A DNA stretch of 64,000 nucleotides from positions 25,131-89,130 of the IMG/VR virus record IMGVR_UViG_2788499831_000001, one strand, 5' to 3'. This DNA is from a virus (lineage: Duplodnaviria > Caudoviricetes). Both the position numbers and the translations under genes were made by a program. Numbering within the stretch: the stretch's first letter is position 1; each line of letters begins with the position of its first letter. Under the pieces are notes generated by a model, which was given only the letters and a program-made list of their open reading frames with translations, was not told where the DNA came from and did no database searches. Shown in pieces: positions 1 through 26,774 of this stretch.

Positions 1-333
1 CTATTCTTCGTTTTTTACATAAAACAATTTCATGTAGAAAAATGCCATTGCAAAAGTAACCAATTCTGCACCAACTTTATAATATTCAGCATGCATCATA
101 TAAATCGCAGCTGCTAACGCTGCAAATACAGGGCCTACTGTGAAAACCATTACTGCCAACCTATTTGTGCATCCATTACGAAGTACAATTGTTATTCCTA
201 CTACAATTAGTAGATTTCCTATATTTCCTATGATTCTAGGCGTGTTCAAGTCATAAATACTTATTCCTAATGATGTTATTGCGCTTGCCCACATTATTGC
301 TAAAATTGTATTCACTAACTTAGGTGAAAACAT
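1..333 (-). CDS. Hypothetical multi-pass membrane protein
   Basis: 110 aa, about 4 hydrophobic segments, RBS-like purines upstream. Confidence 0.7.
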   Translation of the reverse strand: MFSPKLVNTILAIMWASAITSLGISIYDLNTPRIIGNIGNLLIVVGITIVLRNGCTNRLAVMVFTVGPVFAALAAAIYMMHAEYYKVGAELVTFAMAFFYMKLFYVKNEE

Positions 334-361
334 ATTTCCACTTCACTTTCTATTAAAAGGA

Positions 362-712
362 TTATTTTGTTATGTTTTTACCTTCATGAATATTACCGAT
401 TATTTTAAAATTACGACTCAAGCTTTGATACCACTCTGAACCATCTTCATTTGTTGTCAACGCAATAAATTGACATCTCTTTTCATCCCAAACAATTTTA
501 TGTTCATCACCAAAAGGATTCTTAACGATGTCCCCTTCGTAAATTTCACTTCCATGAAAATCCTTTAATCCTGTGTATTGCTGTGGATTTAGACATGTAT
601 ACCAACTATCATCTTCACTATTTAATATCCACCAATTATCGCCATCTTTTGATACACATTCGCTATAAATCCAACTTGATCCATCCCAAGCACGGAATTT
701 AATTTTTCTCAT
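362..712 (-). CDS. YopX family protein
   Basis: IKFRAWD...QYTGLKD..G.EIYEGDIV...IIGNIHE signature. Confidence 0.9.
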   Translation of the reverse strand: MRKIKFRAWDGSSWIYSECVSKDGDNWWILNSEDDSWYTCLNPQQYTGLKDFHGSEIYEGDIVKNPFGDEHKIVWDEKRCQFIALTTNEDGSEWYQSLSRNFKIIGNIHEGKNITK

Positions 713-786
713 TTCCCTCTACCTCCCCTGAATAAAACTCAATATTCCGTCAATACTGTAGACAACCCATTTCTTAACCTGAGCAG

Positions 787-1185
787 TTAGCTTTTGCTAG
801 CTGCTCTTTTGTTTTCTGGATCTTCGAATTTCGCTTTTAATCGTTCGTAATCTCGTCTTTCTTGCTCTTCTTTTCTTTTTTTATATTCTTCTTGTTGTTT
901 CTGTTGTTGTAAGAGCCTTTGATTCTCATACTCTTGAATCTCTTCATGAGATATTATTCCTTTTTCATGCAATGTTTTTCTTAACCAATTATGATTTAAC
1001 ACATATGCTCTTGCGTTGCCTTTGCCGTATACACTGATTTCACTGCTGCCATCATCTTGGAATTGCTCAACTACTAAGATTCCCTTATCTTTTGTAACGA
1101 TTGTAATAGCTTTAGCAAATTGAGCCATGTGTGTAAAAGCTATTTCTTTCCCGTTTAAATCCTCTTCTTTTGAAATAAAGTACAT
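787..1185 (-). CDS. Hypothetical protein with Q/E-rich coiled-coil C-terminus
   Basis: ORF with RBS, phage-like composition. Confidence 0.7.
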   Translation of the reverse strand: MYFISKEEDLNGKEIAFTHMAQFAKAITIVTKDKGILVVEQFQDDGSSEISVYGKGNARAYVLNHNWLRKTLHEKGIISHEEIQEYENQRLLQQQKQQEEYKKRKEEQERRDYERLKAKFEDPENKRAASKS

Positions 1186-1222
1186 TTAGCATCTTCCTTT
1201 TCTACAAAATGAAATTTTTATA

Positions 1223-1417
1223 CTAATCTTCCTCAAGAACCGTAACAGTTAAGTAATTCCTAGCTCTCTTTCGCTTTGCTAACTTCCTCTGATAAGCTGG
1301 CGTTGTGTAATAACGAACTGTTGCAGGAAGTACGCCCATATGTTGAGCGCATTCCTTTGCAGTTCCAATACATACGAATGATTCACCTTTATAAACGACG
1401 TACTCCTTTAAGTTCAT
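1223..1417 (-). CDS. Small hypothetical protein, possible HTH/NUMOD1-like DNA binder
   Basis: GTAKECAQHMGV...TVRYY helix-turn-helix-like pattern. Confidence 0.6.
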   Translation of the reverse strand: MNLKEYVVYKGESFVCIGTAKECAQHMGVLPATVRYYTTPAYQRKLAKRKRARNYLTVTVLEED

Positions 1418-1458
1418 TTCTCATTCCCCTTGTCTACAAAATGAAGTTTTTGTTTGAA

Positions 1459-2175
1459 TTACCCTTGATACTTTTTAAATAACTCGGCCATTGACATATT
1501 GTTGTATTTCGCCAAGTCCTTCGTTACGGCACATACATTACGGAAAGCTGTACAACCCACTCCAACATCAAGGTATTCTAGTAGATCCACATACCAATCA
1601 TTTCGATATGTTTCTTCATCATCGTTTACTGTTTCTACCCAGCATACTAATTCTTGGTGGTTGACTTCAGCTTTGTCGGTAGGGATCGGTTGATTACTTC
1701 CTGTATCCCAGCGCCATCCACCATTTTTCCAATGACCATCATCTAAATCTCTGTTATCCGCATCATCACTTAGTTTTTTGAAATCATCATCTGAAACTTC
1801 ATATACCTGGTACGATGTAGTTTCATCACCATATGTTCTCGTTGCATAAACCCCTAATCTTTTTAAATCTTCAGTTATGTTCCCCTGCACTAAGATTTCT
1901 TCTACCTTAATAATTTCATAAGCTTTGCAAATCCAAGGATCTTCATCATCTTCCACATCATTTGCTAAGAATATTTCCACCTTTACTTCTAGACCGTTCT
2001 CCATAATTGCAATGCACTCATAATAATCATCTAAAAACTGTTCCTTCTCATCCCTTGTATCTACTAAAGACCCCCACTCATCCGGGAAACTATCAAAGAA
2101 ATGTTCTATAGCCCCTCCTAACTGTAAGTAATCACCATACGTATTTTCATAAACTAATTTTTCTTCCATTTTCAT
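1459..2175 (-). CDS. Acidic two-domain hypothetical protein
   Basis: N-terminal domain (YENTYGDYL..GAIEHFFDSFPDEWG) is paralogous to the ORF at 2555-2980. Confidence 0.75.
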   Translation of the reverse strand: MKMEEKLVYENTYGDYLQLGGAIEHFFDSFPDEWGSLVDTRDEKEQFLDDYYECIAIMENGLEVKVEIFLANDVEDDEDPWICKAYEIIKVEEILVQGNITEDLKRLGVYATRTYGDETTSYQVYEVSDDDFKKLSDDADNRDLDDGHWKNGGWRWDTGSNQPIPTDKAEVNHQELVCWVETVNDDEETYRNDWYVDLLEYLDVGVGCTAFRNVCAVTKDLAKYNNMSMAELFKKYQG

Positions 2176-2211
2176 TCTCCTTTTCTAATAAAATAGCGTT
2201 TTTATAACAAA

Positions 2212-2517
2212 TTACTTGTCTTTGTATTCCATCTCCACAAAATCAGCTAATTCAATTTTTTTCTGTACTTCTTCTTCCAAATAGTGAAATACCGCTTCTT
2301 CTCCACCTTGTTCTCTAACATAGGAAATCCATTGTTTCTGTGAATCATCTAATTCGAGTTTTATTGTTGCTTTAACAATCATTGTGTTTTCACTCCGATC
2401 CATAGATTTTGTTTGTTTTTTCGAATCACCTGTACCGTTGCAAAATAGACAAGGTAATTCGTTACCTTTGAAATCAATTGCATATCCTTCTCCGTTGCAT
2501 AATGAACATGCATCCAT
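2212..2517 (-). CDS. Hypothetical protein with DnaJ-type Zn-finger repeats
   Basis: CSLCNGEG and CLFCNGTG motifs; likely start MDACS at 2517 with RBS gaggtg. Confidence 0.7.
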   Translation of the reverse strand: MDACSLCNGEGYAIDFKGNELPCLFCNGTGDSKKQTKSMDRSENTMIVKATIKLELDDSQKQWISYVREQGGEEAVFHYLEEEVQKKIELADFVEMEYKDK

Positions 2518-2554
2518 AAAATTCACCTCACTTCCATACAAGATAACGATTTTG

Positions 2555-2980
2555 TTAAGAAATTTTATACGCCTTGCAAACCCATGATTCATCTTCTTTA
2601 TCCTCTGCATCATCATCAAAACTGATTTCTATTTTTAATTTCAGTCCATTTTCCATAACAATGATACTTTCATGCGACTTATCAAGATAACTAGTTTCTC
2701 CATCATAATCATCTATCATCTGTCCCCACTCCTCAGGGAAACTATCATAAAAATGTTCTACTGCACCTTCTATATTCAGATAATTACCAAAAGAATTTTC
2801 ATAAATCAAATTTTCTTCCTTTTTACGATTCTTATTCCCCGATAAAGCAAACGCATAACGTTCTATTGATAGAGTGCGAACAGCTCCTTCCTCCGTTAAA
2901 GAAATCTCAATTCTCTTTATACCTTCTTCCTTTTGTTTTTCCTTATTAACCTGTACATCTTGACCATTAAACTTAATCAT
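2555..2980 (-). CDS. Acidic hypothetical protein, paralog of the 1459-2175 N-domain
   Basis: YENSFGNYL..GAVEHFYDSFPEEWG...VMENGL...WVCKAY. Confidence 0.7.
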   Translation of the reverse strand: MIKFNGQDVQVNKEKQKEEGIKRIEISLTEEGAVRTLSIERYAFALSGNKNRKKEENLIYENSFGNYLNIEGAVEHFYDSFPEEWGQMIDDYDGETSYLDKSHESIIVMENGLKLKIEISFDDDAEDKEDESWVCKAYKIS

Positions 2981-3016
2981 TCTTCATTCTCCCTTTCTCC
3001 AAATAAAGATTTTGTT

Positions 3017-3202
3017 CTATTTCACTTCATGGATAATAACTAGTACTCTACCTTCCATGTTTTCGCTCCAAGAGTACACGCAACCCGTTTCCTCTAATAC
3101 CGCTTCTAAACGTGGCAATACTTCTTGTACATCCTCTTTCTCAATAATCGCTTTTCCTTTACCCTCTAGTAACTCATCTAAATATTTCTTTAATTTATTC
3201 AT
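3017..3202 (-). CDS. Small hypothetical protein
   Basis: RBS ggaggt; bounded by junction motifs. Confidence 0.7.
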   Translation of the reverse strand: MNKLKKYLDELLEGKGKAIIEKEDVQEVLPRLEAVLEETGCVYSWSENMEGRVLVIIHEVK

Positions 3203-3312
3203 GTTTACTTACCTCCATTTTTTAAAATAAGGATTTTTTTAAATTTATTCACACATAAGTATTAAACTGTTATACTTAACAAACCTGATTAGAAATGATA
3301 CATTCTATGGAA

Positions 3313-3340
3313 AGCCCTAGTCCTCTAGGGCTCTTTTTTT
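3313..3340 (+). terminator. Intrinsic terminator in a non-coding unit
   Basis: agccctag-tcct-ctagggct followed by a T tract. Confidence 0.75.
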
Positions 3341-3516
3341 ATTCAAATAAGAATTTTGTTTAAAAATTCATTAACCTTATTGATTTCTTTGCATACATTA
3401 CAATCACAAGGAATTCTACAGGTTTCCCTAGTCCAGTTACCTTGTATTCCTTGCACACCTTAAGGGAAGAATCAGTTTATAACAAACGGGTTCTATTATT
3501 TTGGGTTATAAAATAA

Positions 3517-4041
3517 CTATTTTGTACTAATTGACTCCCAATCAAATGTTTCTAATATATTCAACAATCGTTCCACTTTTGGTGCTCTCCATGCCGTCAT
3601 AGCGTATGTATGAGCTTTTGAAGTGTAATGATAATTATTTAGTTCAAGGTGACGTTTCGCTTCTTCTTTCGTTAGAAACATAGTGTCAGGCACAATAAAA
3701 TCCTCTTCTTTTACAAACACCGTGTCATAGTATCCACATTCGTTCATATTGTTCTCTACATACTCCCATAACTCATCGAAGTTCTCACTTTCATCATTGA
3801 TAAGATTTTGTAATTCTTCATCTTCTTCAATATCCTCTTCAAAATATTCTTCCAAGAACTCCTTTAAGTCACTAAATTTAGAGAATTTAACATGATCACC
3901 ATCGTTAAAGAAACGCTCCTCGTTTCCTGGAACAGATCGATAATCCTTGATTACCCAAAACCGTGGTGATGCGTTCCCATCAGTTTCTTGTGTTTTTAAC
4001 TCCTGCTGCAGTTCCTTTAAAAATTGAATATCCTTGTTCAT
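3517..4041 (-). CDS. Acidic hypothetical phage protein
   Basis: 174-aa ORF with RBS. Confidence 0.75.
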   Translation of the reverse strand: MNKDIQFLKELQQELKTQETDGNASPRFWVIKDYRSVPGNEERFFNDGDHVKFSKFSDLKEFLEEYFEEDIEEDEELQNLINDESENFDELWEYVENNMNECGYYDTVFVKEEDFIVPDTMFLTKEEAKRHLELNNYHYTSKAHTYAMTAWRAPKVERLLNILETFDWESISTK

Positions 4042-4080
4042 TTCCCATTTCCCCCTTTTGTAATCAAATAACGCTTTTGT

Positions 4081-4368
4081 TTAGTTTTCTATCAATCCAA
4101 CCACGATACACGGAATGCTCTTATCTTCTTTTTCCTCATAAATTTCTTCCAATGTTTTATAAACAGGAAACCCAATACATTCCCATTCAATTTCTTCCTT
4201 ACGATCTATTGTTTCAACACTAATTTCTTCTATTTCGTTACCTTCCTTCTGATAATCCATAACAAGATATCCAACCGCTTCATATTTACTATTGGCTGCA
4301 ATAACTTTCATAGTAGTCCAAATACCTTCTGAAGTTACTTTGTAAAATTCCATTTTCTTTTCCCTCAT
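4081..4368 (-). CDS. Hypothetical phage protein
   Basis: ORF bounded by junction motifs. Confidence 0.7.
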   Translation of the reverse strand: MREKKMEFYKVTSEGIWTTMKVIAANSKYEAVGYLVMDYQKEGNEIEEISVETIDRKEEIEWECIGFPVYKTLEEIYEEKEDKSIPCIVVGLIEN

Positions 4369-4393
4369 TTCTTTACAAAATTCAAATTAGGTC

Positions 4394-4726
4394 TTACTTC
4401 ACATCAACACGTTTCTTACTGTCTTCCTCACTAAATCCGTTCGGGAATCGCTTCATTAACTTATGAATGTTCTTCTCTGCAATCTCATTTAAATCAAGAT
4501 GGTGAGTTTCTGCTAATGCCGCCAAGTACCAAAGTACATCACCTAACTCCTTCTCAACCTCGTCCTCATTTAAATTGTGGCCATGATATACCGCCTTCTT
4601 AATATGGTCCGTAACTTCACCAGCTTCCCCACACAAACCCATAGCGTAGTTTGTAGCATCCTGCTCATACGTTCTTCCTGTTGCAAATGTTCTTGTAACT
4701 GCTGTTTGATATTCTTTAAAATTCAT
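4394..4726 (-). CDS. MazG-like NTP pyrophosphohydrolase
   Basis: GLCGEAGEV..HIKK...EKELGDVLWY signature. Confidence 0.9.
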   Translation of the reverse strand: MNFKEYQTAVTRTFATGRTYEQDATNYAMGLCGEAGEVTDHIKKAVYHGHNLNEDEVEKELGDVLWYLAALAETHHLDLNEIAEKNIHKLMKRFPNGFSEEDSKKRVDVK

Positions 4727-4739
4727 TCCATTCCGCTCC

Positions 4740-4949
4740 TTATAAGTAACTTTTCAATTTCTCTTTCTGTTTCTTCAACACTTCCAAGGAAAGCTTTGTC
4801 TTCCGCTTCTCGCTATCCAATCCAACCAAGTGGTATTCCATCTTACGAATCTCGCTTTCTACTACTGCGAGTTCACTATTCACCTGAATCTTAGTTGATT
4901 CTTTCATCTGAATTTCACCCTCCTTGGATGAATCCAAATTTCTTTCCAA
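4740..4949 (-). CDS. Small coiled-coil hypothetical protein
   Basis: Heptad pattern; likely start MKESTK. Confidence 0.6.
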   Translation of the reverse strand: MERNLDSSKEGEIQMKESTKIQVNSELAVVESEIRKMEYHLVGLDSEKRKTKLSLEVLKKQKEKLKSYL

Positions 4950-5161
4950 CCAGACTTACCGTACTCGCCAATTGTGATATACGACTCAATGTATTTTTCA
5001 TGTTCCCAAACGAAATCACGATGCCATTTGAACGTTTTATCTATGCACCCGAAATTCTTTTCGGCTTCAACGTATTGTTTAACTGTCATATTTTCTTCGT
5101 TTTTATATCCAGTTTCTAAACAATCTAATTTGAATAATTGTTTCCTTCTTGAATATCTCAT
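4904..5161 (-). CDS. Hypothetical protein
   Basis: ORF with RBS ggaggt. Confidence 0.6.
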   Translation of the reverse strand: MRYSRRKQLFKLDCLETGYKNEENMTVKQYVEAEKNFGCIDKTFKWHRDFVWEHEKYIESYITIGEYGKSGWKEIWIHPRRVKFR

Positions 5162-5173
5162 CCATAAAACCTC

Positions 5174-5431
5174 CTACAGTCCTAATTCCTCCATAATCTT
5201 GCCAATGTTCTCATCAAACCCTCGATAAATATTGCTGTTTATTACAAAAGTGGGTAATGTCGAACTAGCATATTTAAGTGTTAGTTCCTGACGCAAATCA
5301 TCGTCTTTATCAATATTTCTTTCTTCAATATCAACCTCAACTGGACAACTCTTTAACATCTCCTTAGCCCGTTTGCATCTCGAACAAGATGAACCCGTGT
5401 ACATAATGATCTTAGTTGCCATTCTCTTCAT
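5174..5431 (-). CDS. Glutaredoxin/NrdH-like redoxin
   Basis: CSRC (CxxC) active site; STLPTFV cis-Pro motif. Confidence 0.85.
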   Translation of the reverse strand: MKRMATKIIMYTGSSCSRCKRAKEMLKSCPVEVDIEERNIDKDDDLRQELTLKYASSTLPTFVINSNIYRGFDENIGKIMEELGL

Positions 5432-5503
5432 TCTCCTTTGATTCTGCTAATAATTGAGTTACTTCAAAAACTAAATTTTCTACCATTATTCGCATCCTCC
5501 TAA

Positions 5504-6061
5504 TTAAGAAATATGTTTCCATTTATATCCGTAAGCCGTCTTTCTTTTTCCGTTACAACAAGCTGATATGCTACTAGCTACATTCACTCCTCTTCCTAAC
5601 GACCTAGATGCTTCTCTAACTGATTCGAATGTATCTAACAGTATGTTGTCTAATGAATATTGAGCCACTTTTTTGTTGCAAGTATTTAACCCAGTTTCGA
5701 ATGCATGTTTAACATTTTCTGCTTGTGTTACCCATTCTAGATTTCTTACGTCATTATCATCTCGTACACCATTTTTATGGTTAACAAACGGTTTATTATC
5801 GGGGTTTTCGATAAACGCTTCTGCCACTAATCTGTGTATAGAAAATTTCTTAGATATTGTATCTATTGTAAAAACTGCGTAGGCGTAATGATTTTGCACC
5901 TGAATATGCGTTTTAAGTATCCTTTCTTTTATAATTTGCTTTCTACCGCATCTAACAATTGGTCTATCTAGGCTCAAAACCCGACCTTTATTCGATATTT
6001 TGTAATAACCTTCATATCCTTTTACATCCCTCCATTCTTCGCTATGCTGTGTGTTTTTCAT
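5504..6061 (-). CDS. NUMOD4-HNH homing endonuclease
   Basis: EEWRDVKGYEGYYKISNKGRV; HRLVAEAFI..VNHKNG..DN..NLEW; NUMOD1-like C-terminus. Confidence 0.9.
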   Translation of the reverse strand: MKNTQHSEEWRDVKGYEGYYKISNKGRVLSLDRPIVRCGRKQIIKERILKTHIQVQNHYAYAVFTIDTISKKFSIHRLVAEAFIENPDNKPFVNHKNGVRDDNDVRNLEWVTQAENVKHAFETGLNTCNKKVAQYSLDNILLDTFESVREASRSLGRGVNVASSISACCNGKRKTAYGYKWKHIS

Positions 6062-6252
6062 TGTTCTTCCTCCTTGTATTTAGATAAGATAGTTGTTAAT
6101 GCTATTGCTGTTCCTTCATTCGCAATCCATTGTCCTTTATAAAAACCGGATAACCCCAAATCTTCGTTATCATAAGCCTTGTCCGCTTTCTTTCTGTTTT
6201 CCACTGCTGACAACTGTAACTGTTCGATATACTCTTCAATCGCTTCTCTCAT
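6058..6252 (-). CDS. Hypothetical phage protein
   Basis: Translationally coupled ORF. Confidence 0.65.
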   Translation of the reverse strand: MREAIEEYIEQLQLSAVENRKKADKAYDNEDLGLSGFYKGQWIANEGTAIALTTILSKYKEEEQ

Positions 6253-6668
6253 TACTTCTTACCTCCCTGTAATAACTCTGGATTCTCAAACATATTTCCC
6301 TTTATATGGTTTAAATTCAATTCGCTCCATAATCGCACTGCATCATTTACCTCGTTATCAATCCACCAAACTCCCTCTTCTTGCTTAACTACACCAGTAA
6401 GTCCATGCGATGTTTCTACACGGTGGTCATAAAATTCTTGGTAAACGATGTCACCTTCGTAAATTTCATTTCCGTGTACGTCTTTTAAACCTGTGTATTG
6501 CAACAGTGCAACATCTTTTAATCTCCTTACATAAGTACCGTAACAAATTCCACCTTTAATCATCGCCACTTGTACAACTTCATTAGCAAAATCTATATAT
6601 CCAACGTCATATATTTTTTCTGATACCTTGTCGAAAGCTTTAAACTTAATCTCTCTCATTCTCCCCAT
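6252..6668 (-). CDS. YopX family protein
   Basis: REIKFKAFD...LLQYTGLKD..G.EIYEGDIV...GNMFENPELL. Confidence 0.9.
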   Translation of the reverse strand: MGRMREIKFKAFDKVSEKIYDVGYIDFANEVVQVAMIKGGICYGTYVRRLKDVALLQYTGLKDVHGNEIYEGDIVYQEFYDHRVETSHGLTGVVKQEEGVWWIDNEVNDAVRLWSELNLNHIKGNMFENPELLQGGKK

Positions 6669-6789
6669 CCCCTTTTATCAATTTGAATAACTCCTGCTCA
6701 CTCATTTCATACAACTGACGTCCTGTTTTTTCTTCCTTGTAGATTCCCTTATGTAATAAGACGTCGATGAAAACTTGTTTCCTGTCCAT
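6646..6789 (-). CDS. FbpA (Fur-regulated basic protein)-like small protein, absent from ORF track
   Basis: Manual translation MDRKQVFIDVLLHKGIYKEEKTGRQLYEMSEQEL...; 47 aa. Confidence 0.65.
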   Translation of the reverse strand: MDRKQVFIDVLLHKGIYKEEKTGRQLYEMSEQELFKLIKGDGENERD

Positions 6790-6798
6790 GTTGCCTCC

Positions 6799-7254
6799 CT
6801 AGCTGATTTGTTTCTTCTTTTTCTTCCTAACCGGTTTCGTAGCTGCTACATCCATATCCCACTTCATTACGAGTATTCTTGTTTGCAAAGTACTACCGCA
6901 AATCCCATTTTTTCTAGCCTTGTCAAAGATTTCTTTAGGAATGATACGTTTTTTAGAGTTCAATTTTTCTACAACTTCTTGATAAGTGAGGATTGGTGTC
7001 GTCGCCGCTTCTTCTGGGTCCCACTTATGAACATTTACGCGATTTCTAAAATTCCGATATGAAATCCCGTTTTTTTCCGCTATCTCTACAAACTTCTTAT
7101 ACTTCTTTCGGAATGAAACGTATATTGGCTTTGTAATTGCATCCTCAATCGACCAATTTAATTTATTTACACGTTGGTCTACATTGACCTTTGATATACC
7201 GTTTCTTTCTGCAACCTCGTAATCTTTTTCAGTAGGTACTGGTTTATACTGCAT
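6799..7254 (-). CDS. Repeat-containing putative DNA-binding phage protein
   Basis: Three repeats of A.KNGI....QR.....W..E.A.T.P. Confidence 0.75.
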   Translation of the reverse strand: MQYKPVPTEKDYEVAERNGISKVNVDQRVNKLNWSIEDAITKPIYVSFRKKYKKFVEIAEKNGISYRNFRNRVNVHKWDPEEAATTPILTYQEVVEKLNSKKRIIPKEIFDKARKNGICGSTLQTRILVMKWDMDVAATKPVRKKKKKQIS

Positions 7255-7574
7255 TGTTCTTCCTCCTTACTCTTGACGATATTTCTGCTGCTTCTTTTTT
7301 TGTTAACCGCGGAACAACTGCTGCCTCAAATGGATCCCGACCTTTAGACTGAACGCGTTGACGAAACAATTTATATCCAATCCCGTTTTTCTCCGCTATC
7401 TCTAATTCTTTCTTATACTTTTTTTGCAAATGATTCGTTCACTGGCCTTGTAATAGCTTTTAATATGTTCCAACCTCGTATAATCCGCTGATCTACATTA
7501 CATTTGCTAATACCATTCCTCTTAGCTATTTCATATTGTTCCCAAGTAGGAACTGGAAGGTAATTATTCTCCAT
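7244..7574 (-). pseudogene. Frameshifted paralog of 6799-7254
   Basis: MENNYLPVPTWEQYEIAKRNGIS... stops just after gcAAAAAAAg; the continuation KKYKKELEIAEKNGI is in another frame. Confidence 0.7.
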
Positions 7575-7584
7575 TTTCTCCCTC

Positions 7585-7851
7585 CTAATCTAGCTCCATG
7601 ATTTCTTTAAGCGTTCTATCAGATACATAAATTTTTACAATTTGTATTTTGTAACCGTGCTTACCTTTCGCGGCAGCCTCTGCTTCATTACGATTATTAG
7701 CCTCAAACCAATCAATGCTTTGTCTTTTATCTTTGTAAAAATCAACAGCGTATGTCGTTATGACTGGTGTCTTTGCTAGGAATCGCTCGGCCGTGCTCTT
7801 TGCTTTGTAATCGAAACTTCCCACAACATCCTCTAGTGTTAGTTGTTTCAT
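7585..7851 (-). CDS. Conserved Bacillus phage hypothetical protein
   Basis: MKQLTLEDVVGSFDY N-terminus; coupled ORF. Confidence 0.7.
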   Translation of the reverse strand: MKQLTLEDVVGSFDYKAKSTAERFLAKTPVITTYAVDFYKDKRQSIDWFEANNRNEAEAAAKGKHGYKIQIVKIYVSDRTLKEIMELD

Positions 7852-8135
7852 GCCCCTAACCCCATCGGACGCGACTTGATGATGTTTTTGTCTGCCTGAT
7901 CCATAATCAAAGCGGCAATTTCTAATTGATGTCTTCCCAACTCTTTTGCGATTTCAAGGATTCCTTTGTCTTCCTTCCACATTTCTTGGAATCGAATCAC
8001 TTCGCTTTCATCAAATACCAAGTCCAGTTCTTCTAAAGCGATATACAAATTACGACGCGATTTCTTCATGTACTTCCTCTGCTGCAACGCCATTGTGTAA
8101 TTTTCCTTTTCCAAATCCGTTCCAAGTCTTGGCAT
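7848..8135 (-). CDS. HTH domain protein
   Basis: WKEDKGILEIAKELGRHQLEI HTH pattern. Confidence 0.7.
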   Translation of the reverse strand: MPRLGTDLEKENYTMALQQRKYMKKSRRNLYIALEELDLVFDESEVIRFQEMWKEDKGILEIAKELGRHQLEIAALIMDQADKNIIKSRPMGLGA

Positions 8136-8313
8136 CCCATTTCCCCTCCAGTTGTAATTGATGAATCTCTCTTAGCTCCGCCATAACAGCATGACGCCTT
8201 CTATCCACTTCTTCAGGACTGCGCTTCCCTGCTTCGCAAACACATGACCCAAATTGATACATACCCGTTCCAATGTCGTTCTGAATTACTCCCGTTCCGT
8301 TACATGCACACAT
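8050..8313 (-). CDS. Small Cys-rich (CxCxGxG) phage protein
   Basis: CACNGTG...CVC; directly follows the DnaC gene. Confidence 0.65.
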   Translation of the reverse strand: MCACNGTGVIQNDIGTGMYQFGSCVCEAGKRSPEEVDRRRHAVMAELREIHQLQLEGKWDAKTWNGFGKGKLHNGVAAEEVHEEIAS

Positions 8314-8330
8314 TTCAATTTCCCCCTTAT

Positions 8331-9254
8331 TTATGCCGTTCTATAACTAACTCCCTTAACTTGGTACAAGTACTTTTTACTCATTCCGTACAAACGATCA
8401 GCTGCCGCAAATCCTATTTTGTCTTCCAATGTGTCTAAGTCTTCGTTGCTTGTGTACCAAATCGGTAAATTCCGTAAGTATCGCTCATTGATAATCTTGT
8501 AATACATGTCCTCTTTGAACTCGCTGTACTTCGATTTTGCTATGTCATCCCACACGAGAATGTCACAAGTGCATAAGTCATGTAGTAATTCATTTAATCG
8601 TTTTTTATTGTCATTTAGGAACGCTGCATTTTGTATTTCAGCCATGATATTTACATCCTGGACACATAGTACTCTAGCTCCACGTAAACGCCCTGTGCGC
8701 TCGTCTACGATCTTGAATTTATTCAATGCATATTTAGCTGCTGCTATTTGCAAATGAGTCTTCCCTAATCCGTACGAATTGTTTTCCTGACGCATTTTAT
8801 TTCGTTCTCCTGGAGGTAAACTTTTTAATCTTGTTTCACCCACTGATGCAATAAACCCGATACTATTCATCTTTGAATCTCTAATTTCGTTAAAGACTTT
8901 CAAATAATCGATCATAGCGTCATATAAAACTTTCTGCACTTCTGCCTCCCTTATGTAGTTATCAAATCGTGCATTTTCAAACTCAGATGGAATCATTGCG
9001 TACTTGAAACGAGCTTTTAGACTTTTCCTTTCTAAGCATTCACATTCGATAGCAACATCAACATATTTCCCTTTTAGAAATTCAGATGGCTCTTTAATGA
9101 ACGTATACCCTTTATCACCACATATTTCACAATCAACCGATGGTTTGAGCGAATCCTCTCCCGCTGGTCGGTTGGATTCCTCTGCCAGTGCCTTTTTGTG
9201 CATAACTTCCGCTCGCTTCATTAAATCCTTCATTATGTCCCCCAACTTTTCCAT
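8331..9254 (-). CDS. DnaC/IstB-like helicase loader ATPase
   Basis: CEICGD..CEC Zn site; GLGKTHL Walker A; LVWDDI Walker B. Confidence 0.9.
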   Translation of the reverse strand: MEKLGDIMKDLMKRAEVMHKKALAEESNRPAGEDSLKPSVDCEICGDKGYTFIKEPSEFLKGKYVDVAIECECLERKSLKARFKYAMIPSEFENARFDNYIREAEVQKVLYDAMIDYLKVFNEIRDSKMNSIGFIASVGETRLKSLPPGERNKMRQENNSYGLGKTHLQIAAAKYALNKFKIVDERTGRLRGARVLCVQDVNIMAEIQNAAFLNDNKKRLNELLHDLCTCDILVWDDIAKSKYSEFKEDMYYKIINERYLRNLPIWYTSNEDLDTLEDKIGFAAADRLYGMSKKYLYQVKGVSYRTA

Positions 9255-9933
9255 TACCTTTCACCCCTTTGTTTTTAAACTCTGTTTCTGATGCTTCAAC
9301 ATCTGCTAAAGTACGAATGTTATTGTTAGCCCACTGCTTCAAGATTCCCTCAGCATAGTTCCATTTAGCTTGCTTTTTTAATGCGCGTTCCATAGCTGCT
9401 ATAACCAATTCTTCGCTTGTATCTTTAATCCACTGATCTACGTTATCTGCCATGTACGGATTTAATATTCCAATGTTACTTTCATAGAATGAGAAGGGAT
9501 TCTTACTACTATTACTTATTGTTAAATTAGTATTGTTAAGATTAGTATTGTTAGTGTTTCCCTCAGACACTACCCCTAGTTTCTCTGGGACACTACCCTG
9601 GTTTCCCTCAGACACTACTAGTTTCTGTGAGACACTAGGGGTAGGTAGTACGTAATAGATATTTGATAAGTTATTTCCTTGTTCATCTTTCCTGTTAATT
9701 TTTTGGATGTACCCTTTTTCTTCTAATGACTTGATACATTGGACAATCTTCTTTCTTCCGCATCCAACTTTTTCAGTTAATGTCGTTAATGAAGGGAACG
9801 CTGATTGTGTATCTCGATTCGCATGTCTTACAATCACTGCGTAAGCTTTAAACTCGTAAACATCCAAATCACAGTTGTCTATTGCGTCATTCTCTATCAT
9901 GAAAAATCCGCGTCTTTTATCAATAAAATTCAT
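9133..9933 (-). CDS. Phage replication initiator, N-terminal HTH plus DnaD domain
   Basis: AFPSLTTL..KVGCGRK HTH; C-terminal FYESNIG..W..D...AMERA...WNYAEGILKQW. Confidence 0.9.
   Translation of the reverse strand: MNFIDKRRGFFMIENDAIDNCDLDVYEFKAYAVIVRHANRDTQSAFPSLTTLTEKVGCGRKKIVQCIKSLEEKGYIQKINRKDEQGNNLSNIYYVLPTPSVSQKLVVSEGNQGSVPEKLGVVSEGNTNNTNLNNTNLTISNSSKNPFSFYESNIGILNPYMADNVDQWIKDTSEELVIAAMERALKKQAKWNYAEGILKQWANNNIRTLADVEASETEFKNKGVKGNGKVGGHNEGFNEASGSYAQKGTGRGIQPTSGRGFAQTIG
9556..9638. repeat. Lytic-origin iterons inside the initiator gene
   Basis: Four copies of gtttcNNNNNgacacta at 9556, 9579, 9601 and 9621, next to an AT-rich tract. Confidence 0.8.
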
Positions 9934-10176
9934 TTAGTTCACCTTCTTCATTTCCGTTTCATAGAAGCAATCCGTTTCGTCAATTTCACCAGTTGTATGA
10001 ATTCTTTCCGTATTTACAACCTTTCGGACTGGATACACACATTCATAACCGTCTTTCGCCATTTTATATATCCGTTTGCCAATTTCCGTTTTGTCTGTAT
10101 CTCGTAAGTATTTGTTTTCGTTCTTTTTACTTGGAATTAAGAAACTATATCGTTTTGATCTGTATACCGTTTCCAT
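9934..10176 (-). CDS. Hypothetical protein
   Basis: Coupled ORF. Confidence 0.65.
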   Translation of the reverse strand: METVYRSKRYSFLIPSKKNENKYLRDTDKTEIGKRIYKMAKDGYECVYPVRKVVNTERIHTTGEIDETDCFYETEMKKVN

Positions 10177-10347
10177 TTACATCTCCCTCTCGCATATAGC
10201 AAATCCTTTCGATACTTTCAGGACCCTATAACCTGGGTAGCGTTTTGGATTTATATATTTCAGTTCGTTTTTCTTTGCTTCGTCTGTTGATTTGGCATCC
10301 TTCCAGCACCAAGCCGGAAGGAGTACCTTACTTTGTTTTTCAATCAT
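10177..10347 (-). CDS. Small hypothetical protein, absent from ORF track
   Basis: Manual translation MIEKQSKVLLPAWCWKDAK...RYPGYRVLKV; 56 aa. Confidence 0.6.
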   Translation of the reverse strand: MIEKQSKVLLPAWCWKDAKSTDEAKKNELKYINPKRYPGYRVLKVSKGFAICEREM

Positions 10348-11171
10348 TGTTCAAATACAATTTCTGATTGCCCGTTATTTGTTGTTTCTTCACTAGTTTC
10401 TTCTGCTTCAATAAATTCTGGTTCTGCTGTAATATCTTTTCGTACCACTTCGTCATGCTGCGCCTGCGTTTGGACTTCGATGCTGATTGGTAAGTATTTA
10501 AACATCGCTCTCACGACTGTTTTCTTCGCCATTTCTTCATAATCACTATCCCAAGGGCTGTAACTTTTTGATTTCGCTCTAGTGCGGCGTTTTTCAACTT
10601 CGCTTTTTGGCATAAATTCCATTTGGTAACCACCATCTTTAAAATGTGCAACTGCATAAGCTCCAATGAATGCCCCACGCTCTCCAAATGAAGGTTTGTG
10701 CTTTAATGTAGGTTGTAAGCCTAATTCGTATTCGAATTCATCGTTCTCGTACACAGCGTGAGCGTAAATACTTTGGATGTGACCGGAACGTCTAGCAAGA
10801 TCAATCATTCCTTTGTAGCCAATGATGAACTGTACTTCTTTTACCCATTGAGGATTTTGTTTCGTTCCAGCGTTCTTATTGAAGGGAATTAAGTAGCAAT
10901 GACCTAACAATCCTGGCTCGAGTCCAAGTTGCACAGCTTGCATAACCGCTCCCATAAGTGAAGGTACTGTACATTCAAGTAATGTTGGATTTGTTCGAAT
11001 GGTTGTAAGTGCGATACGACTCATACGGTCCATATCCATATGCTTAGGTAATGCTTCAGCCATTTTAGGGCCCATCTTTTTCATATAAGCTTCTACCGTT
11101 TGTTCCGGAGTGGTTGGTGCACTTCCCTTACGAGTTGCTAATTGAGTTTTAACATCTTGATTAGTTGCCAT
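10344..11171 (-). CDS. recT: RecT family ssDNA-annealing recombinase
   Basis: LGLEPGLLGHCYLIPF..QFIIGYKG...PW..DYEEMAKKTV. Confidence 0.95.
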   Translation of the reverse strand: MATNQDVKTQLATRKGSAPTTPEQTVEAYMKKMGPKMAEALPKHMDMDRMSRIALTTIRTNPTLLECTVPSLMGAVMQAVQLGLEPGLLGHCYLIPFNKNAGTKQNPQWVKEVQFIIGYKGMIDLARRSGHIQSIYAHAVYENDEFEYELGLQPTLKHKPSFGERGAFIGAYAVAHFKDGGYQMEFMPKSEVEKRRTRAKSKSYSPWDSDYEEMAKKTVVRAMFKYLPISIEVQTQAQHDEVVRKDITAEPEFIEAEETSEETTNNGQSEIVFEQ

Positions 11172-11185
11172 TTTTTATTTCCCCC

Positions 11186-12127
11186 TTATTTAATTGAAAA
11201 TCTTCTTGTATTAGATTCTTTCGTATATTGTTTATATAAATCTGGGTGTTCTTCCTTAAAACGTTTACTATCAAAGCGATTAGTAGAATAAGATTTCCAA
11301 AGAACTGTGTAATTCTCAGTAGCTCCTTTTGCTCTCTCTCCAAGCATTGCTTTCAATTTGTTTTCGTACTCTTTTTTCTGTGTATCTAACACTTTTAGTT
11401 CAGCTTCAATTTGATTACGAGCTTCTACTAATATCTCAGCTTCATTTGAGAGGCTTACAACGTTATCTTCAAATCCTTTTGGATACATTTGATTTAAGAG
11501 ATTTGTAGACGCATCACTTCCATCGAACATTGGTGGTTCTAACTTCTCGACATGATTTTGCCAAAAGTCTTTTTCAATATCGATTAAGTACTGAATAACC
11601 TCTTCATCACGTTCAATCTTTTTATAGATGAATTTATTCCCGCCAATTAATACTGCAATCCACCATGCTTCATAACCTGTTACAGCCATATAATGTTGGC
11701 ACTGAATGAGATAAGACGTTGGTACTTCTTCACCCTCCCATTCTTTCTTTAGATATTCAGATGCGGTTTTACACTCAAGCCCTACCTTTTCACTGATAAT
11801 GAGCCTGTCCACATTTGCGAGCATCCAAGGATAATCCGGATGTTGTAAGATTGCATTTCGTTTACGTACTTTCAATCCAGTTCGTGAACTAAATTCTTGT
11901 GCTACGACTTCCTCGAGAACATTTCCGAAGTGAGCTGCTTCACTTTGAATATCTTCTTCTGGCGATTCGCCAACTTTATCCATATAAACCGAAATTGGTG
12001 ATTTCCATTTGTTTAGACCTGCAATAGCAGATGCATCAGAACCTCCAATACCTGCCTTTCTTGCTTCTAACCATTGTTCATGAGCCATTTCTTTTGTTAT
12101 TGCTAATACGTTTGCATTCATTTCCAC
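11186..12127 (-). CDS. YqaJ-like viral recombinase exonuclease
   Basis: GIGGSDAS..ANVDR..LECKT..QCQHYMAV. Confidence 0.95.
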   Translation of the reverse strand: MEMNANVLAITKEMAHEQWLEARKAGIGGSDASAIAGLNKWKSPISVYMDKVGESPEEDIQSEAAHFGNVLEEVVAQEFSSRTGLKVRKRNAILQHPDYPWMLANVDRLIISEKVGLECKTASEYLKKEWEGEEVPTSYLIQCQHYMAVTGYEAWWIAVLIGGNKFIYKKIERDEEVIQYLIDIEKDFWQNHVEKLEPPMFDGSDASTNLLNQMYPKGFEDNVVSLSNEAEILVEARNQIEAELKVLDTQKKEYENKLKAMLGERAKGATENYTVLWKSYSTNRFDSKRFKEEHPDLYKQYTKESNTRRFSIK

Positions 12128-12198
12128 ATTCCTCCTTATTTACTTAGAAGAAACGACTATGTTATAATAGAGGTACAATTTATTGAGTCGTTTCCTGA

Positions 12199-12226
12199 AC
12201 CAGCCGATTACGCCAAATCGGCTGGT
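12199..12226. terminator. Bidirectional hairpin upstream of yqaJ
   Basis: accagccgatt/aatcggctggt stem followed by a T tract. Confidence 0.7.
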
Positions 12227-12254
12227 TTTATTTTGTTTTGATGCTTCGCTTGTC

Positions 12255-12536
12255 CTATTCACTTAACCACTCTGGGTCTTCATGCCAACCGCCTTCATCG
12301 TGATCGTAACGATAGTAATAAGCATCGCCATCTTCATTAACAATGGGATTTGTGTAGGTGTCATAAGGTCGAGTACCTTCCATGTAGTACGTCATTACGT
12401 ATTTACCTAACATAGGGCAATAAATTTCTCCCCACTCAACTCCATTACTCCAACTAATTTCTCTCATTTCCATTCCCCTTTCTGATGCTTTCACGCATCG
12501 GAATATCCAGGAACCTTTCGGTAAGGTGGGGACCAA
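12255..12536 (-). CDS. Acidic hypothetical protein; true start probably MREISWS
   Basis: Flanked by gcttgtcctatt repeats. Confidence 0.65.
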   Translation of the reverse strand: MVPTLPKGSWIFRCVKASERGMEMREISWSNGVEWGEIYCPMLGKYVMTYYMEGTRPYDTYTNPIVNEDGDAYYYRYDHDEGGWHEDPEWLSE

Positions 12537-12585
12537 TATTAGATTCCTGAATATTCCGACAAGCGAAGGCTTGTCCTATTTAGAA

Positions 12586-12888
12586 TCACCATTCATTCCG
12601 TTCACGAACGATTTTTAGCTGCTCTGGTGTTAATTCAACATCTACAGGTTCATAATTATTTTTAATAAACTCAATGTCGTTTGACATCGGTAAGCCTGCC
12701 ATGAATTTATAAAATTTATCAACGTCATCTTGGTTTGGTTTTTGTAAATCGTACCTTGTGATGAACAATGCATCTGTAAATACTTGTGTATCTAAATATT
12801 CATCTGACCAATCTCCACACTCAGGGCCATCACATAAATAGCGATTATCTTTATTTTTAGCTTTGAATGCTATTGCTGGTATTTTCAT
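12586..12888 (-). CDS. Hypothetical protein
   Basis: ORF with RBS. Confidence 0.7.
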   Translation of the reverse strand: MKIPAIAFKAKNKDNRYLCDGPECGDWSDEYLDTQVFTDALFITRYDLQKPNQDDVDKFYKFMAGLPMSNDIEFIKNNYEPVDVELTPEQLKIVRERNEW

Positions 12889-13058
12889 CTCTCATTTCCT
12901 CCTACTCTTTCTGCAACTCTTTGAGCGTATCGAACTTGCTGTTTGATATATGGATCTTCCCAACTACCTCCACTTGCGACCCAATCAGTTAAACGGCTTT
13001 TTATATCCGTCAATACCTCGAATGGTAGCAAATGAGCTATTTTGTTTAATTCCTCCAA
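12885..13058 (-). CDS. Small hypothetical protein, absent from ORF track
   Basis: TTG start with RBS; MEELNKIAHLLPFEVLTDIKSRLTDW...; 57 aa. Confidence 0.6.
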   Translation of the reverse strand: MEELNKIAHLLPFEVLTDIKSRLTDWVASGGSWEDPYIKQQVRYAQRVAERVGGNER

Positions 13059-14448: not shown

Positions 14449-14631
14449 TCATTCCTCCTCTTGTTCCCAAAGAATGTTTAAAGCATTTTCGATTAACCCT
14501 TCTAAGTATTCAGTTCTATTCATGATGCTTGGGAATGAGCCATGTGAATTAGTAAGTGTTGCTGGGTAACGATCTCTAACATCTCTGAAAGCCGATTCTA
14601 AAATATCGATTGCTTCTTTTAACTCACTCAT
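14449..14631 (-). CDS. Small hypothetical protein
   Basis: Coupled to the antirepressor stop codon. Confidence 0.65.
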   Translation of the reverse strand: MSELKEAIDILESAFRDVRDRYPATLTNSHGSFPSIMNRTEYLEGLIENALNILWEQEEE

Positions 14632-15356
14632 GCTGTTGCACTTCCTTTGTTAAGAAGCTTGTCAGCTACTCGAACAGCATCTTCTAATTGATTTGTCATC
14701 GATAAGTACTGCGGTCTTGTTAAATCTTTAAGGCCGTGTTTCTCTTTATATTTTGTAATTCGTAATTTCAGGTTTGTTTTATACGCTGTGTTGAATGCAT
14801 CTGTGAAAGCTCTCCATGCATTTGGGATAGTCATTTTCTCTTGTTGTGCATGTCGTCTAATCATTTTGTTTAAGCGTTGCTGCAAGTCACCAATTGTATC
14901 GATTCTGTCAATATTATCTAATCGGTGATTCACTGTTGTTACTTGCTGTTCTAGCTGAACCATTCGTCTTTCGCTTTCCATATTTTGTTGAGCTAACATG
15001 TAGATCAACTCAGCTGGTGACTTTGCTTGTTGTTGACGGAATCGTTTTTCTACTTCAATGAAGTATTTTCTGATTACTCGTCCAGCTTCGTTATTTTGTA
15101 CCATCGCTACTTCTTTAGCTGTATCTATTGTGAGCCAATACTCCACTTTAGGTCGTCCGTTTGTTTTTTCCGAAACTGGAAAAAAGTCTTCTCTTTCGAT
15201 GAAACCGTATTTTTCGATACGTTCTTGTATCCATGCAGCGAAAACTTTACCGACCAACATCTGCTCATGTAACTCACGAGCATTTACGAACTTTTCACCA
15301 TTCTCATTTTGATAAACTGGAAGCATTTCATTTGCGATTACTTTTAATTGATTCAT
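14628..15356 (-). CDS. AntA/AntB antirepressor
   Basis: VNARELHEQM...F..WIQ.RI..YGF.E.EDF...EY.LTIDTAKEVAMV. Confidence 0.9.
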   Translation of the reverse strand: MNQLKVIANEMLPVYQNENGEKFVNARELHEQMLVGKVFAAWIQERIEKYGFIEREDFFPVSEKTNGRPKVEYWLTIDTAKEVAMVQNNEAGRVIRKYFIEVEKRFRQQQAKSPAELIYMLAQQNMESERRMVQLEQQVTTVNHRLDNIDRIDTIGDLQQRLNKMIRRHAQQEKMTIPNAWRAFTDAFNTAYKTNLKLRITKYKEKHGLKDLTRPQYLSMTNQLEDAVRVADKLLNKGSATA

Positions 15357-16670: not shown

Positions 16671-17813
16671 CTATATTATCCCTAGGTTTTTCTTCGGTAA
16701 TTGGGAGTAAAAAATATTGCCTAATTGCTCGAACTTATTTAAGGACTCTGCAAATAAGTTTTTATCATTTTTCGCTAAAGCTAGATAATATAATTGAAAT
16801 GCAGATAGCTCTCCATTTTCCTCTTTGAGACGTTCTAACATCCTGATAGCTTTTTCATTATCCCCTAATTGAATTTCTAAATAAGCTTTCTCAGCTATAT
16901 GGATCGGATGAACATTATTTAATCCAACTTTCCACATTATTTTCAAAAATTCAATCGTGTTTACCATCATATCGTTACGTAAACTCATACGAGCGTTAAG
17001 TTTCTTCTCTAATATTTCAATTGCTTGGTTAATATAATGCGTTGCTGTTTCAAAACTTTCAAAAGTGTACGATTCTCCTAAAGTTCCATATGCAGTAGCT
17101 ACGATCATCGGAAACCGTCGTCGTAACTCTTCCCTGTTTATAATTTCATGACATGTAGTTCTTGCTTTTTCTACTTCACCTGACATTAACAGTCCTTGAA
17201 TCATACATTCTTTAATTTTGTATTCAAAGGAGAGCTTTAAATAAGGATCCGAAATTGAATCCACCTCTTCCAATAAGATAGCAGCAGTATCATTCAGCAA
17301 TTTGAAATTCCTTCTATCAGCTGTTGCAAATAACGATAAGATTTCAAATAAAATTTGCATTTCGGTTGTAGATAACTTTATTTCCTTCTTTGCCTGATGT
17401 AGTCGTTTTTGCAATTTCTTCCCTGACAACTCGCCCTTATTACGTAAGTAAATTAGTTCATAAACATAAGCCCATTCACGATTATCTTTATCATGAGATG
17501 TTTTTTCAATGTCGACCAATTGTTTTAATAATTCCTGTTCACCATGCACAGCGAGATAATCCATCGCTAACCTCTTATTGATTGGTTTATCCGTCTGAGA
17601 AAAATATCTTTCGCAACACATTCTTCTTGTAGTTACATCGTTAGGGAAAACTTCTTTTAATAATTCACCATAAGTATTAGACCTCATTTGAGACTTCCCA
17701 TTAAGGAAATTAGAAATGGTAACATGTGTTGTGTTGATCTGTTTTCCAATTTTACGAGTGCTCATTCTGTGAAAATTGATTTGATTTGAAATCTTATTTA
17801 ATACCTCTTGCAC
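16671..17813 (-). CDS. aimR: Arbitrium receptor AimR (RRNPP family, HTH plus TPR)
   Basis: N-terminal HTH (STRKIGKQINTTHVTISNFLNGK); TPR-like helices; GTG start at 17813 with RBS aaggagga. Confidence 0.88.
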   Translation of the reverse strand: MQEVLNKISNQINFHRMSTRKIGKQINTTHVTISNFLNGKSQMRSNTYGELLKEVFPNDVTTRRMCCERYFSQTDKPINKRLAMDYLAVHGEQELLKQLVDIEKTSHDKDNREWAYVYELIYLRNKGELSGKKLQKRLHQAKKEIKLSTTEMQILFEILSLFATADRRNFKLLNDTAAILLEEVDSISDPYLKLSFEYKIKECMIQGLLMSGEVEKARTTCHEIINREELRRRFPMIVATAYGTLGESYTFESFETATHYINQAIEILEKKLNARMSLRNDMMVNTIEFLKIMWKVGLNNVHPIHIAEKAYLEIQLGDNEKAIRMLERLKEENGELSAFQLYYLALAKNDKNLFAESLNKFEQLGNIFYSQLPKKNLGII

Positions 17814-17914
17814 AGTGCTTGTCCTCCTTGTGGACAAAAGACACGTAAACCCCAATTTGTTACATATAAAGGAAAACGCGCCACTTTCAATCTAAGGTGT
17901 GTTATAATCAGTAT

Positions 17915-25730: not shown

Positions 25731-25760
25731 AAAAAGCCGTCAAATGACGGCCCTTATTTT
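25731..25760. terminator. Bidirectional terminator after the endolysin
   Basis: gccgtca-aa-tgacggc flanked by A and T tracts. Confidence 0.7.
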
Positions 25761-26560
25761 TATTTCACTTCATACCACCAACCTTTACGGTCAAGCCAAC
25801 CTTTCATGCCGTTTAATTGCGAATCCGATGTTGGATCAGTAACGAAATATGTTAATCCATTAGATTGTAATTTGAAGTCCGCTGTCATCTTCAAAGAATT
25901 TAAAGCGCCCATTACATCAGGAGTTTCGTATGGTGAAAAAGCACCTGTTTGGATGATGTTTTGTTTAGGTTCTTCCGCTTGTACTTGCTCCTGTGCTGCT
26001 CCAGTAAACCATGCTAAAGACTTATTTCCTATAAGTGAATTAAGATCACATTTACCGATACCAGGTACATTTCCTGTTTCAGTGTATTGCCAAATATCGC
26101 AAGGATATGCTGGTTTATTACCACCATAACGCGGAATCCAAACGAAATCACATTTCACATTTGCCATACCAAAAGGTGCGTACATATGATGACCGACATA
26201 TAAACCGACTTTCTTAGCTCCTAATCGGTATAACTCATCGATAAACGCCTGTGTACCTGCTCTCATATCATTCATTGTTTTTACTTCTACATCAGCCACC
26301 CATACAGTTGCGCTCTTATCACCACGGCTCCAGAAGTCTTGCGCTTCTTTCTTCGCATCATTAATCGATACAAATCTACAGAACGCATAATTGCCAAAAG
26401 GAATATTACGAATCTTCATAGCGGCTACATAAGATTTGTATACTGGATCGACGTAGTTAGAACCATCTTGTACACGAGCAATTACGAAATCTAAATGTTT
26501 TGCTGCCGTATCCCAATCAGGACTTCCATTCCATTTAGACATATCAACAATATATCCCAT
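25760..26560 (-). CDS. GH25 endolysin (PlyB-like)
   Basis: [24 protein letters not shown]; C-terminal cell-wall-binding domain. Confidence 0.92.
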
Positions 26561-26772: not shown

Positions 26773-26774
26773 CG

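Follow-up and report, generated by a model that had tools for sequence, protein, structure and literature searches.

Barcoded joints between accessory genes of Bacillus cereus-group siphophages as possible short homology anchors for slot-wise gene exchange

At the start of a 64,000-nt stretch of phage DNA, referred to here as the window (positions 25,131 to 89,130 of IMG/VR virus record IMGVR_UViG_2788499831_000001), a run of small genes is punctuated at its borders by the same short AT-rich word. What does such a repeated joint do? The first-pass annotation of this DNA, made from the letters alone, had described AAAA-N6-TTTT sites with inverted arms. It had proposed that they drive an integron-like capture and shuffling of single-gene cassettes by a tyrosine recombinase, with regulator-binding or RNA-processing sites as the alternative. 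We noticed that each joint carries its own central barcode, that the order of the barcodes is kept across related phages, and that the cargo between the same two barcodes is unrelated from phage to phage. No published description of this motif in phages of the Bacillus cereus group was found in literature searches.

On the coding strand, which is the minus strand of the window, the repeated element is an asymmetric 18-nt word, AAAYAAAA-nnn-TTATTTK. The base just past it, position 19, is a purine in 97 of 100 junction contexts. Ten copies lie between 355 and 4082, each of them between two units and all ten in the minus orientation. The sites named in the first-pass annotation were confirmed: six (355, 1206, 1438, 2190, 3224, and 3510) match AAAA-N6-TTTT exactly, and the other four (2540, 3000, 3344, and 4065) have one mismatch to this pattern, yet score 17 to 25 bits with a matrix built from other phages. 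Neither of the two places counted as variants (734 and 4377) conforms to the motif, and 4377 is a different conserved joint after the MazG gene. Invariant blocks are AAAA at positions 5 to 8 and TTATTT at positions 12 to 17, with TTA replaced by TCA, TCC, or CTA in three junction classes. The dyad symmetry of these flanks is weak, and the A4 and T4 blocks begin 10 bp apart, which is one helical turn. Over all ten classes and all phages, the center varies and AAAA, TTATTT, and the purine at position 19 stay nearly invariant, the conserved element measuring 18 to 30 nt.

Such a word could be a chance or compositional artifact of AT-rich intergenic DNA, and the loose 14-mer AAAA-N6-TTTT does occur at chance level across the whole window (17 copies versus 15.9 expected, 6 of the 17 in the first 4 kb). 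The full motif behaves differently. An independent matrix, made of sites from other phages only, which were first picked with a window-trained matrix, identified 9 copies of at least 13 bits in positions 1 to 4400, whereas 300 dinucleotide-shuffled versions contained 0.07 on average. The same matrix gave no further copy of at least 12 bits outside the array in the whole 89-kb record. The window-trained matrix produced a single stray match (35564 to 35581, plus strand, 17.5 bits) within a coding region of the second phage present in the record; it is missing with the independent matrix and is therefore probably due to chance. As a specificity control, 120 genome loci from many taxa with one exact copy each were inspected. 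Among the matches listed, 111 of them had no second strong copy, and arrays of 5 to 7 copies were present at three loci only, L142 (Bacillus sp.), L198 (B. fungorum), and L245. Taken with the uniform orientation and the recurrence of barcodes in order across more than 15 further phages, these counts rule out chance and AT-rich composition, to which we assign a residual probability close to nil.

The barcode comprises the central 3 to 6 nt of the motif and is different in each of the ten copies. Read along the minus strand, on which all joints lie, the conserved order begins with GCG at junction 1 (4065 to 4082; AAACAAAA-GCG-TTATTTG, 25.4 bits with the independent matrix). It continues with TAG at junction 2 (3510 to 3527), TTC at junction 3 (3344 to 3361), TCC at junction 4 (3224 to 3241), TCT at junction 5 (3000 to 3017), TCG at junction 6 (2540 to 2557), ACGC at junction 7 (2190 to 2207), ACTTC at junction 8 (1438 to 1455), and ATTTC at junction 9 (1206 to 1223). 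The array ends with TAATCC at junction 10 (355 to 372). Adjacent joints never carry the same barcode. Neighboring barcodes are often one base apart (TTC/TCC/TCT/TCG and ACTTC/ATTTC), a pattern compatible with an array that grew by local duplication.

The same oriented arrays were detected in phages Gamma, Cherry, Fah, Wbeta, J5a, and Athena and, by pattern scans, in at least 11 IMG/VR proviruses and at least 3 genome loci. Where annotation is available, they are positioned between a MazG or dUTPase gene and an ArpU- or sigma70_r4-like regulator. When the whole genomes of Wbeta and Athena were scanned, strong copies appeared in the array region only. The MazG pyrophosphohydrolase gene (4394 to 4726, minus strand; PF03819, 1.4e-13), initially taken for cargo, is the conserved upstream flank in the window, and MazG or dUTPase also flanks the arrays of Gamma, J5a, Wbeta, and Athena. 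The barcode order of the window is kept in 14 other arrays, with 232 concordant and 20 discordant pairs, a concordance reached in none of 5,000 permutations. L142, L198, and L245 keep the same order as well, the junction contexts of L245 repeating those of provirus L085.

The cargo does not follow this regularity. Grouping of 95 inter-motif units by blastn/tblastx (E below 1e-8, coverage of at least 40%) yielded 66 families, and single slots contained 6 to 8 unrelated families. The slot between GCG and TAG was occupied by 7 families in 9 arrays and that between TCG and ACGC by 8 families in 9 arrays. Reversed fosB or cupin genes and hairpin units lacking an open reading frame (ORF) are among the cargo. 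Slot fidelity is not absolute, since some arrays contain duplicated stretches; in addition, cassette families 0, 3, 6, 9, and 14 were each found between different barcode pairs. As to whether a barcode goes with the cassette family upstream or downstream of it, the few available cases gave a mixed picture.

Megablast matches of the window to phage records are gene-sized, and their ends lie at motif edges (1219, 2188, 2203, 3345, and about 3532). A block in Waukesha92, phiS58, and TP21T has its right edge in junction 9 (1219). Junction 7 forms the edge both of a Gamma-family block (2188 to 2404) and of a BceA1/SpaA1 block ending at 2203, and junction 3 is the left edge of a J5a block (3345 to 3532). 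When 16 arrays were compared all against all, 54 of 154 homology-block left ends fell at positions -8 to +4 of the motif and 51 of 144 right ends at positions 15 to 20, a pile-up at the motif edges of about 20 times the uniform expectation. Gains, losses, and replacements between related phages thus break at the motif, as had been anticipated from the sequence of the window. Phages Gamma and Wbeta illustrate this with 100% identity flanking one replacement, which extends from the end of the spacer after MazG to base 4 of the TAG junction, the homolog of junction 2. This replacement is the published difference between a fosfomycin gene and a spore-antigen gene (PMC4113786). Its upstream limit, which we call "junction 0" (4369 to 4393 in the window, minus strand), is a different conserved spacer, AATTTGAATTTTGT..., common to Gamma and Wbeta, which scores below the threshold and does not fit the 18-nt motif.

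Every gene in positions 1 to 12900 lies on the minus strand; because of this, the plus-strand "taa" triplets that had been read as two stop codons inside the core are not stops. A same-strand gene preceding the motif usually has its stop overlapping bases 1 to 3 of the 18-mer. The stop falls in the core only at 355 (junction 10), where it belongs to the YopX gene. The stop of gene 4081-4368 overlaps the first bases of junction 1, that of gene 3517-4041 overlaps the first base of junction 2, and the first three bases of junction 6 are the TAA stop of gene 2555-2980. A same-strand gene following the motif starts approximately 19 to 23 nt beyond it, with its own ribosome-binding site (RBS). At junction 3, a hairpin and not an RBS comes next. 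Of 100 junctions in 15 arrays, 48 lack an ORF stop at the joint, and at 63 no ORF begins on the same strand within 45 nt. The neighbors at joints without ORF ends are reversed genes, hairpins, or ORF-less units, which indicates that the motif tracks the direction of the array and not that of the cargo.

With a same-strand ORF start within 45 nt at only 37 of 100 junctions, an obligatory start or stop signal for translation was rejected. The SAS/ESAS elements of Cluster K mycobacteriophages are asymmetric words on the 13-nt scale, located just upstream of many genes and tied to start codons. The joints resemble them in being a conserved asymmetric word that is repeated within one phage group, but differ in the majority of copies that precede no start. 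A structural role was likewise considered. Hairpin or cruciform formation from the AAAA and TTTT "arms" was dismissed, as the RNAs or strands of eight junctions folded no better than shuffled sequences (z between -1.5 and +0.5) and shared no common structure. On the coding strand, none of the ten copies falls on a sigma-70-type promoter or a terminator. A search of positions 1 to 6000 against Rfam returned no family, with one subthreshold chance match to a snoRNA model (E of 0.53). In a comparison by eye, none of the consensus sequences of sigma-H, sigma-E/K/F/G, ECF (AAC...CGT), CodY box, cre, DnaA box, and dif fitted the conserved positions.

We hypothesize that the joints are short homology anchors for slot-wise gene exchange, an interpretation that we hold with moderate confidence from the comparison of sequences. 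About ten paralogous joints in fixed order would be spread over the accessory ("hyperplastic") region that separates MazG from the ArpU-like late regulator in siphophages of the B. cereus group. If two of these phages come together in a cell, in an infected lysogen, by co-infection, or as two prophages, a crossover could occur inside an 18- to 30-nt joint common to both, and a pair of crossovers at two joints would replace everything between them. We infer that the exchange depends on homology and that it may be catalyzed by phage annealases such as RecT/YqaJ or by host RecA, or may come about by template switching. Because the full 18 nt are common only to joints with the same barcode, exchange would be mostly slot for slot, and the order would be kept. 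Neighboring copies in one genome share runs of only 7 to 8 nt, which would limit self-deletion. Rare crossovers between unlike joints could give rise to duplications, losses, and changes of slot. The joint would serve as a neutral connector, lying outside ORFs, taking cargo in either orientation, and leaving each unit with its own RBS or terminator. The motif-bearing phage encodes a RecT annealase (10344 to 11171, minus strand; PF03837, 6e-60) and a YqaJ exonuclease (11186 to 12127, minus strand; PF09588, 1.2e-42), candidate catalysts of short-homology exchange that, with a DUF1064 nuclease-like protein, count in favor of homology anchors.

Several points weigh against this interpretation. For RecA-type recombination, 18 nt is a very short length, and for annealases it is marginal. 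The annotations of Wbeta and Athena contain no annealase, so that no single catalyst would be common to all. More generally, annotation did not point to any recombinase or annealase that all motif-bearing phages have in common, unannotated genes not having been searched. The breakpoint statistics also have to be read with care. Homology blocks necessarily run through any conserved word, and the pile-ups consequently show that the flanks assort independently and not by which chemistry. As the intergenic spacer between units is almost wholly motif, a breakpoint at the motif and a breakpoint in the spacer are inseparable by position alone. The arrays and phages compared are related and not phylogenetically independent. 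Finally, passive homology fails to explain the near-invariant flanks and the purine at position 19, which points to an added, sequence-specific function.

In T4-type phages, modular shuffling by homologous recombination is mediated by a repeated junction motif, the promoter-early stem-loop (PeSL) (Arbiol et al. 2010, PMC2839356; Comeau et al. 2014, PMC4122927). PeSLs and the joints have in common a short conserved motif, repeated at the borders of small nonessential genes in a plastic region, and insertions, deletions, and replacements between related phages that end at the motif. For PeSLs, homologous recombination between copies is given as the cause of the exchange. The two elements differ in their makeup. 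A PeSL comprises a strong sigma-70 early promoter and a terminator stem-loop, neither of which is present in the joint; the latter is only 18 to 30 nt long and occurs in temperate siphophages of Gram-positive hosts. Slot-specific, ordered barcodes such as those found here are not mentioned for PeSLs in the abstracts of these studies. Mini-circles formed by recombination of nearby copies have been demonstrated for PeSLs.

The invariance of the flanks keeps a protein-binding role alive. The motif could primarily be a site for a phage or host regulator, or for a silencer or roadblock that coats the accessory region, or a signal in the operon transcript. It would then be conserved for the sake of expression, with recombination as a by-product of a repeated word, as is the case for PeSLs in T4 and for SPBRE boxes in SPbeta. 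Near-invariant flanks with a purine at position 19 around a variable center are what a bipartite protein site looks like; the starts of the A4 and T4 blocks are one helical turn apart, and the orientation of the copies follows the operon and not the cargo. A precedent comes from phage SPbeta, whose SPBRE boxes serve as operators for the repressor MrpR/YopR, which has a tyrosine-recombinase fold (Kohm et al. 2023, PMC10516654). They resemble the joints as a short AT-rich word repeated about ten times between genes in a temperate Bacillus phage with an arbitrium system, and AimR is encoded by both phages. In contrast to SPBRE boxes, which occupy promoter regions and have a known repressor, the joints lie at operon-internal positions without promoters, and no MrpR-like or recombinase-fold protein was found in the motif-bearing unit. 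The missing promoters and terminators, the lack of an RNA fold or Rfam match, and the many joints without an ORF start or stop speak against such a role. Moreover, replication-module genes of the same operon are expressed without the motif, no candidate binding protein was found, and conservation of slot-specific barcodes across phages is not predicted by a binding site. The regulator-binding and RNA-processing alternatives of the first-pass annotation are thereby weakened, and we regard a primary binding or transcript function as possible but somewhat doubtful.

Any explanation by a site-specific recombinase has to be considered against the gene content of the record. The IMG/VR "provirus" record consists of two phage units. 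The motif-bearing unit reaches from the left end of the contig to approximately 25.7 kb of the window, its late genes being located left of the window. It contains the DUF1064 nuclease-like gene, an ArpU-like (DUF1492) regulator, the array, and then MazG, as well as an HNH homing endonuclease, two YopX genes, DnaC-like and DnaD-like loaders, RecT, the YqaJ exonuclease, an AimR arbitrium regulator, and an actin-like partition protein. Profile matches over the record show neither a tyrosine nor a serine recombinase in this unit. The second unit (25.76 to 62.1 kb) has no motif array. It harbors the only PF00589 match in the 89-kb record, a tyrosine recombinase (27309 to 28370) situated in a late operon between a tail endopeptidase (28830 to 30797) and a holin plus GH25 lysin (25760 to 27263). 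The record's only serine recombinase (60749 to 62110) is also part of the second unit.

According to the integron-like model, circular single-gene cassettes, each with its own site, would be moved by the tyrosine recombinase at 27309 to 28370. The joints do form an array of same-orientation direct repeats that separate mostly single-gene, promoter-less units with highly variable cargo, as in integrons, and the record does hold a tyrosine recombinase. An attC site is an imperfect inverted repeat of 57 to 141 bp whose single strand forms a hairpin, and the joints have neither the length nor the fold. Unlike an integron site, the barcode is fixed to its position in the array and does not travel with the gene, the order of sites is conserved, and cargo may be reversed or noncoding. 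Circle insertion would produce duplicated barcodes at adjacent joints, which do not occur. No integrase, attI, or Pc-like arrangement lies by the array, and the recombinase in question belongs to the other phage unit and is absent from the Wbeta annotation. In every defining respect examined, the joints depart from an integron, and we consider an integron-like mechanism highly improbable. Of the original proposal, what stands is that the units between motifs act as swappable cassettes; the integron or tyrosine-recombinase mechanism is unsupported.

A variant of that proposal is a natural form of recombinase-mediated cassette exchange, in which a dedicated recombinase would bind the flanks and exchange only matching barcodes. 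Conserved flanks and a slot-fixed center kept between genomes are what recombinases with matching overlaps would select, and the breakpoints lie inside the 18-mer. The heterospecific lox and FRT sites used in the engineering of cassette exchange have 13-bp symmetric arms and a known recombinase. Like the joints, they combine common flanks with distinct central spacers, a design that would confine exchange to like with like and keep the order; the motif has no 13-bp symmetric arms and no known recombinase. Core sites of tyrosine recombinases generally consist of two inverted arms of about 9 to 13 bp around a 6- to 8-bp overlap. The motif, with its blocks AAAA and TTATTT and weak dyad symmetry, does not have this layout, and the inverted arms originally seen in it are 4 to 8 nt, poorly symmetric, and form no stable hairpin. 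Flanks of 7 to 8 nt are also far below the known half-site length of tyrosine and serine recombinases.

The motif-bearing unit encodes neither recombinase family, and the sole tyrosine recombinase is part of the motif-free neighbor's late operon. In addition, the integrase complement differs among motif-bearing phages, which have different integrases or lack one. The Wbeta annotation has a single integrase, presumably a large serine recombinase, and that of Athena has a putative site-specific integrase of unstated family and tyrosine-type fragments. The presence of the same cassette family between different barcode pairs shows that strict core matching is not obeyed, which counts further against heterospecific sites. 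We consider this explanation improbable, a dedicated barcode-matching enzyme being a long shot. A broader version, in which the joints are an evolved addressing system whose flanks and slot barcodes order the exchange, perhaps read by a dedicated flank-recognizing protein of no known recombinase family, also appears unlikely to us, though less so. If true, it would amount to natural "cassette exchange" without any known recombinase family.

Nine cargo units occupy positions 373 to 4064 of the window on the minus strand, seven with small protein genes and two without an ORF. Besides the YopX gene (362 to 712), the protein genes are 787-1185, 1223-1417, 1459-2175, 2212-2517, 2555-2980, 3017-3202, and 3517-4041, all on the minus strand. 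The genes 1459-2175 and 2555-2980, which occupy different slots, have a common 88-amino-acid domain (49% identity, E of 1e-30) that lies at the N terminus of one product and at the C terminus of the other, suggesting domain shuffling within the array. The ORF-less units lie at 3242 to 3343 and 3362 to 3509. In the former, a plus-strand promoter-like sequence, TTCACA-17-TATACT with a TG extension (3248 to 3276), runs antisense to the operon and is followed by a terminator (3313 to 3332), for which an RNA of approximately 45 to 60 nt is predicted. The latter is conserved in J5a, Wbeta, and provirus L112. Similar hairpin-only units with a backward-facing terminator are found in many arrays of other phages. 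The noncoding sequence 728 to 815, between gene 787-1185 and the YopX gene, is 83 to 96% conserved in many B. cereus-group phages, where it is unannotated. A plus-strand terminator with an 11-bp stem (781 to 806), antisense to the operon, overlaps the 3' end of gene 787-1185.

Some features outside the array were also recorded. A free-standing HNH homing endonuclease gene (5504 to 6061; NUMOD4, HNH_3, and I-HmuI-like NUMOD) is located in the early operon just upstream of the conserved flank of the array. Left of the window by approximately 1.3 to 2.2 kb, contig positions 22900 to 23790, which separate the ArpU-like gene from the small genes that come next, contain no ORF of at least 70 amino acids. 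The motif-bearing unit encodes AimR (16671 to 17855), an antirepressor (14628 to 15356), and the actin-like ALP partition protein (22068 to 23123) and lacks a recombinase. Maintenance as a plasmid-prophage is possible, though the unit is contiguous with the second phage in the record.

Phage mosaicism is usually viewed as the outcome of random illegitimate joining followed by selection, and an exact exchange of modules at gene borders is rarely visible. Here, an oriented and barcoded joint marks the places where unrelated genes swap, in a family of temperate phages to which Gamma, Wbeta, and Cherry, used for anthrax typing, belong. A mechanism of mosaicism thus becomes directly testable in a tractable system. 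The joints also provide a rule for locating accessory, host-interaction, and anti-defense genes, namely, anything between two barcodes, and they suggest natural "sockets" for phage engineering.

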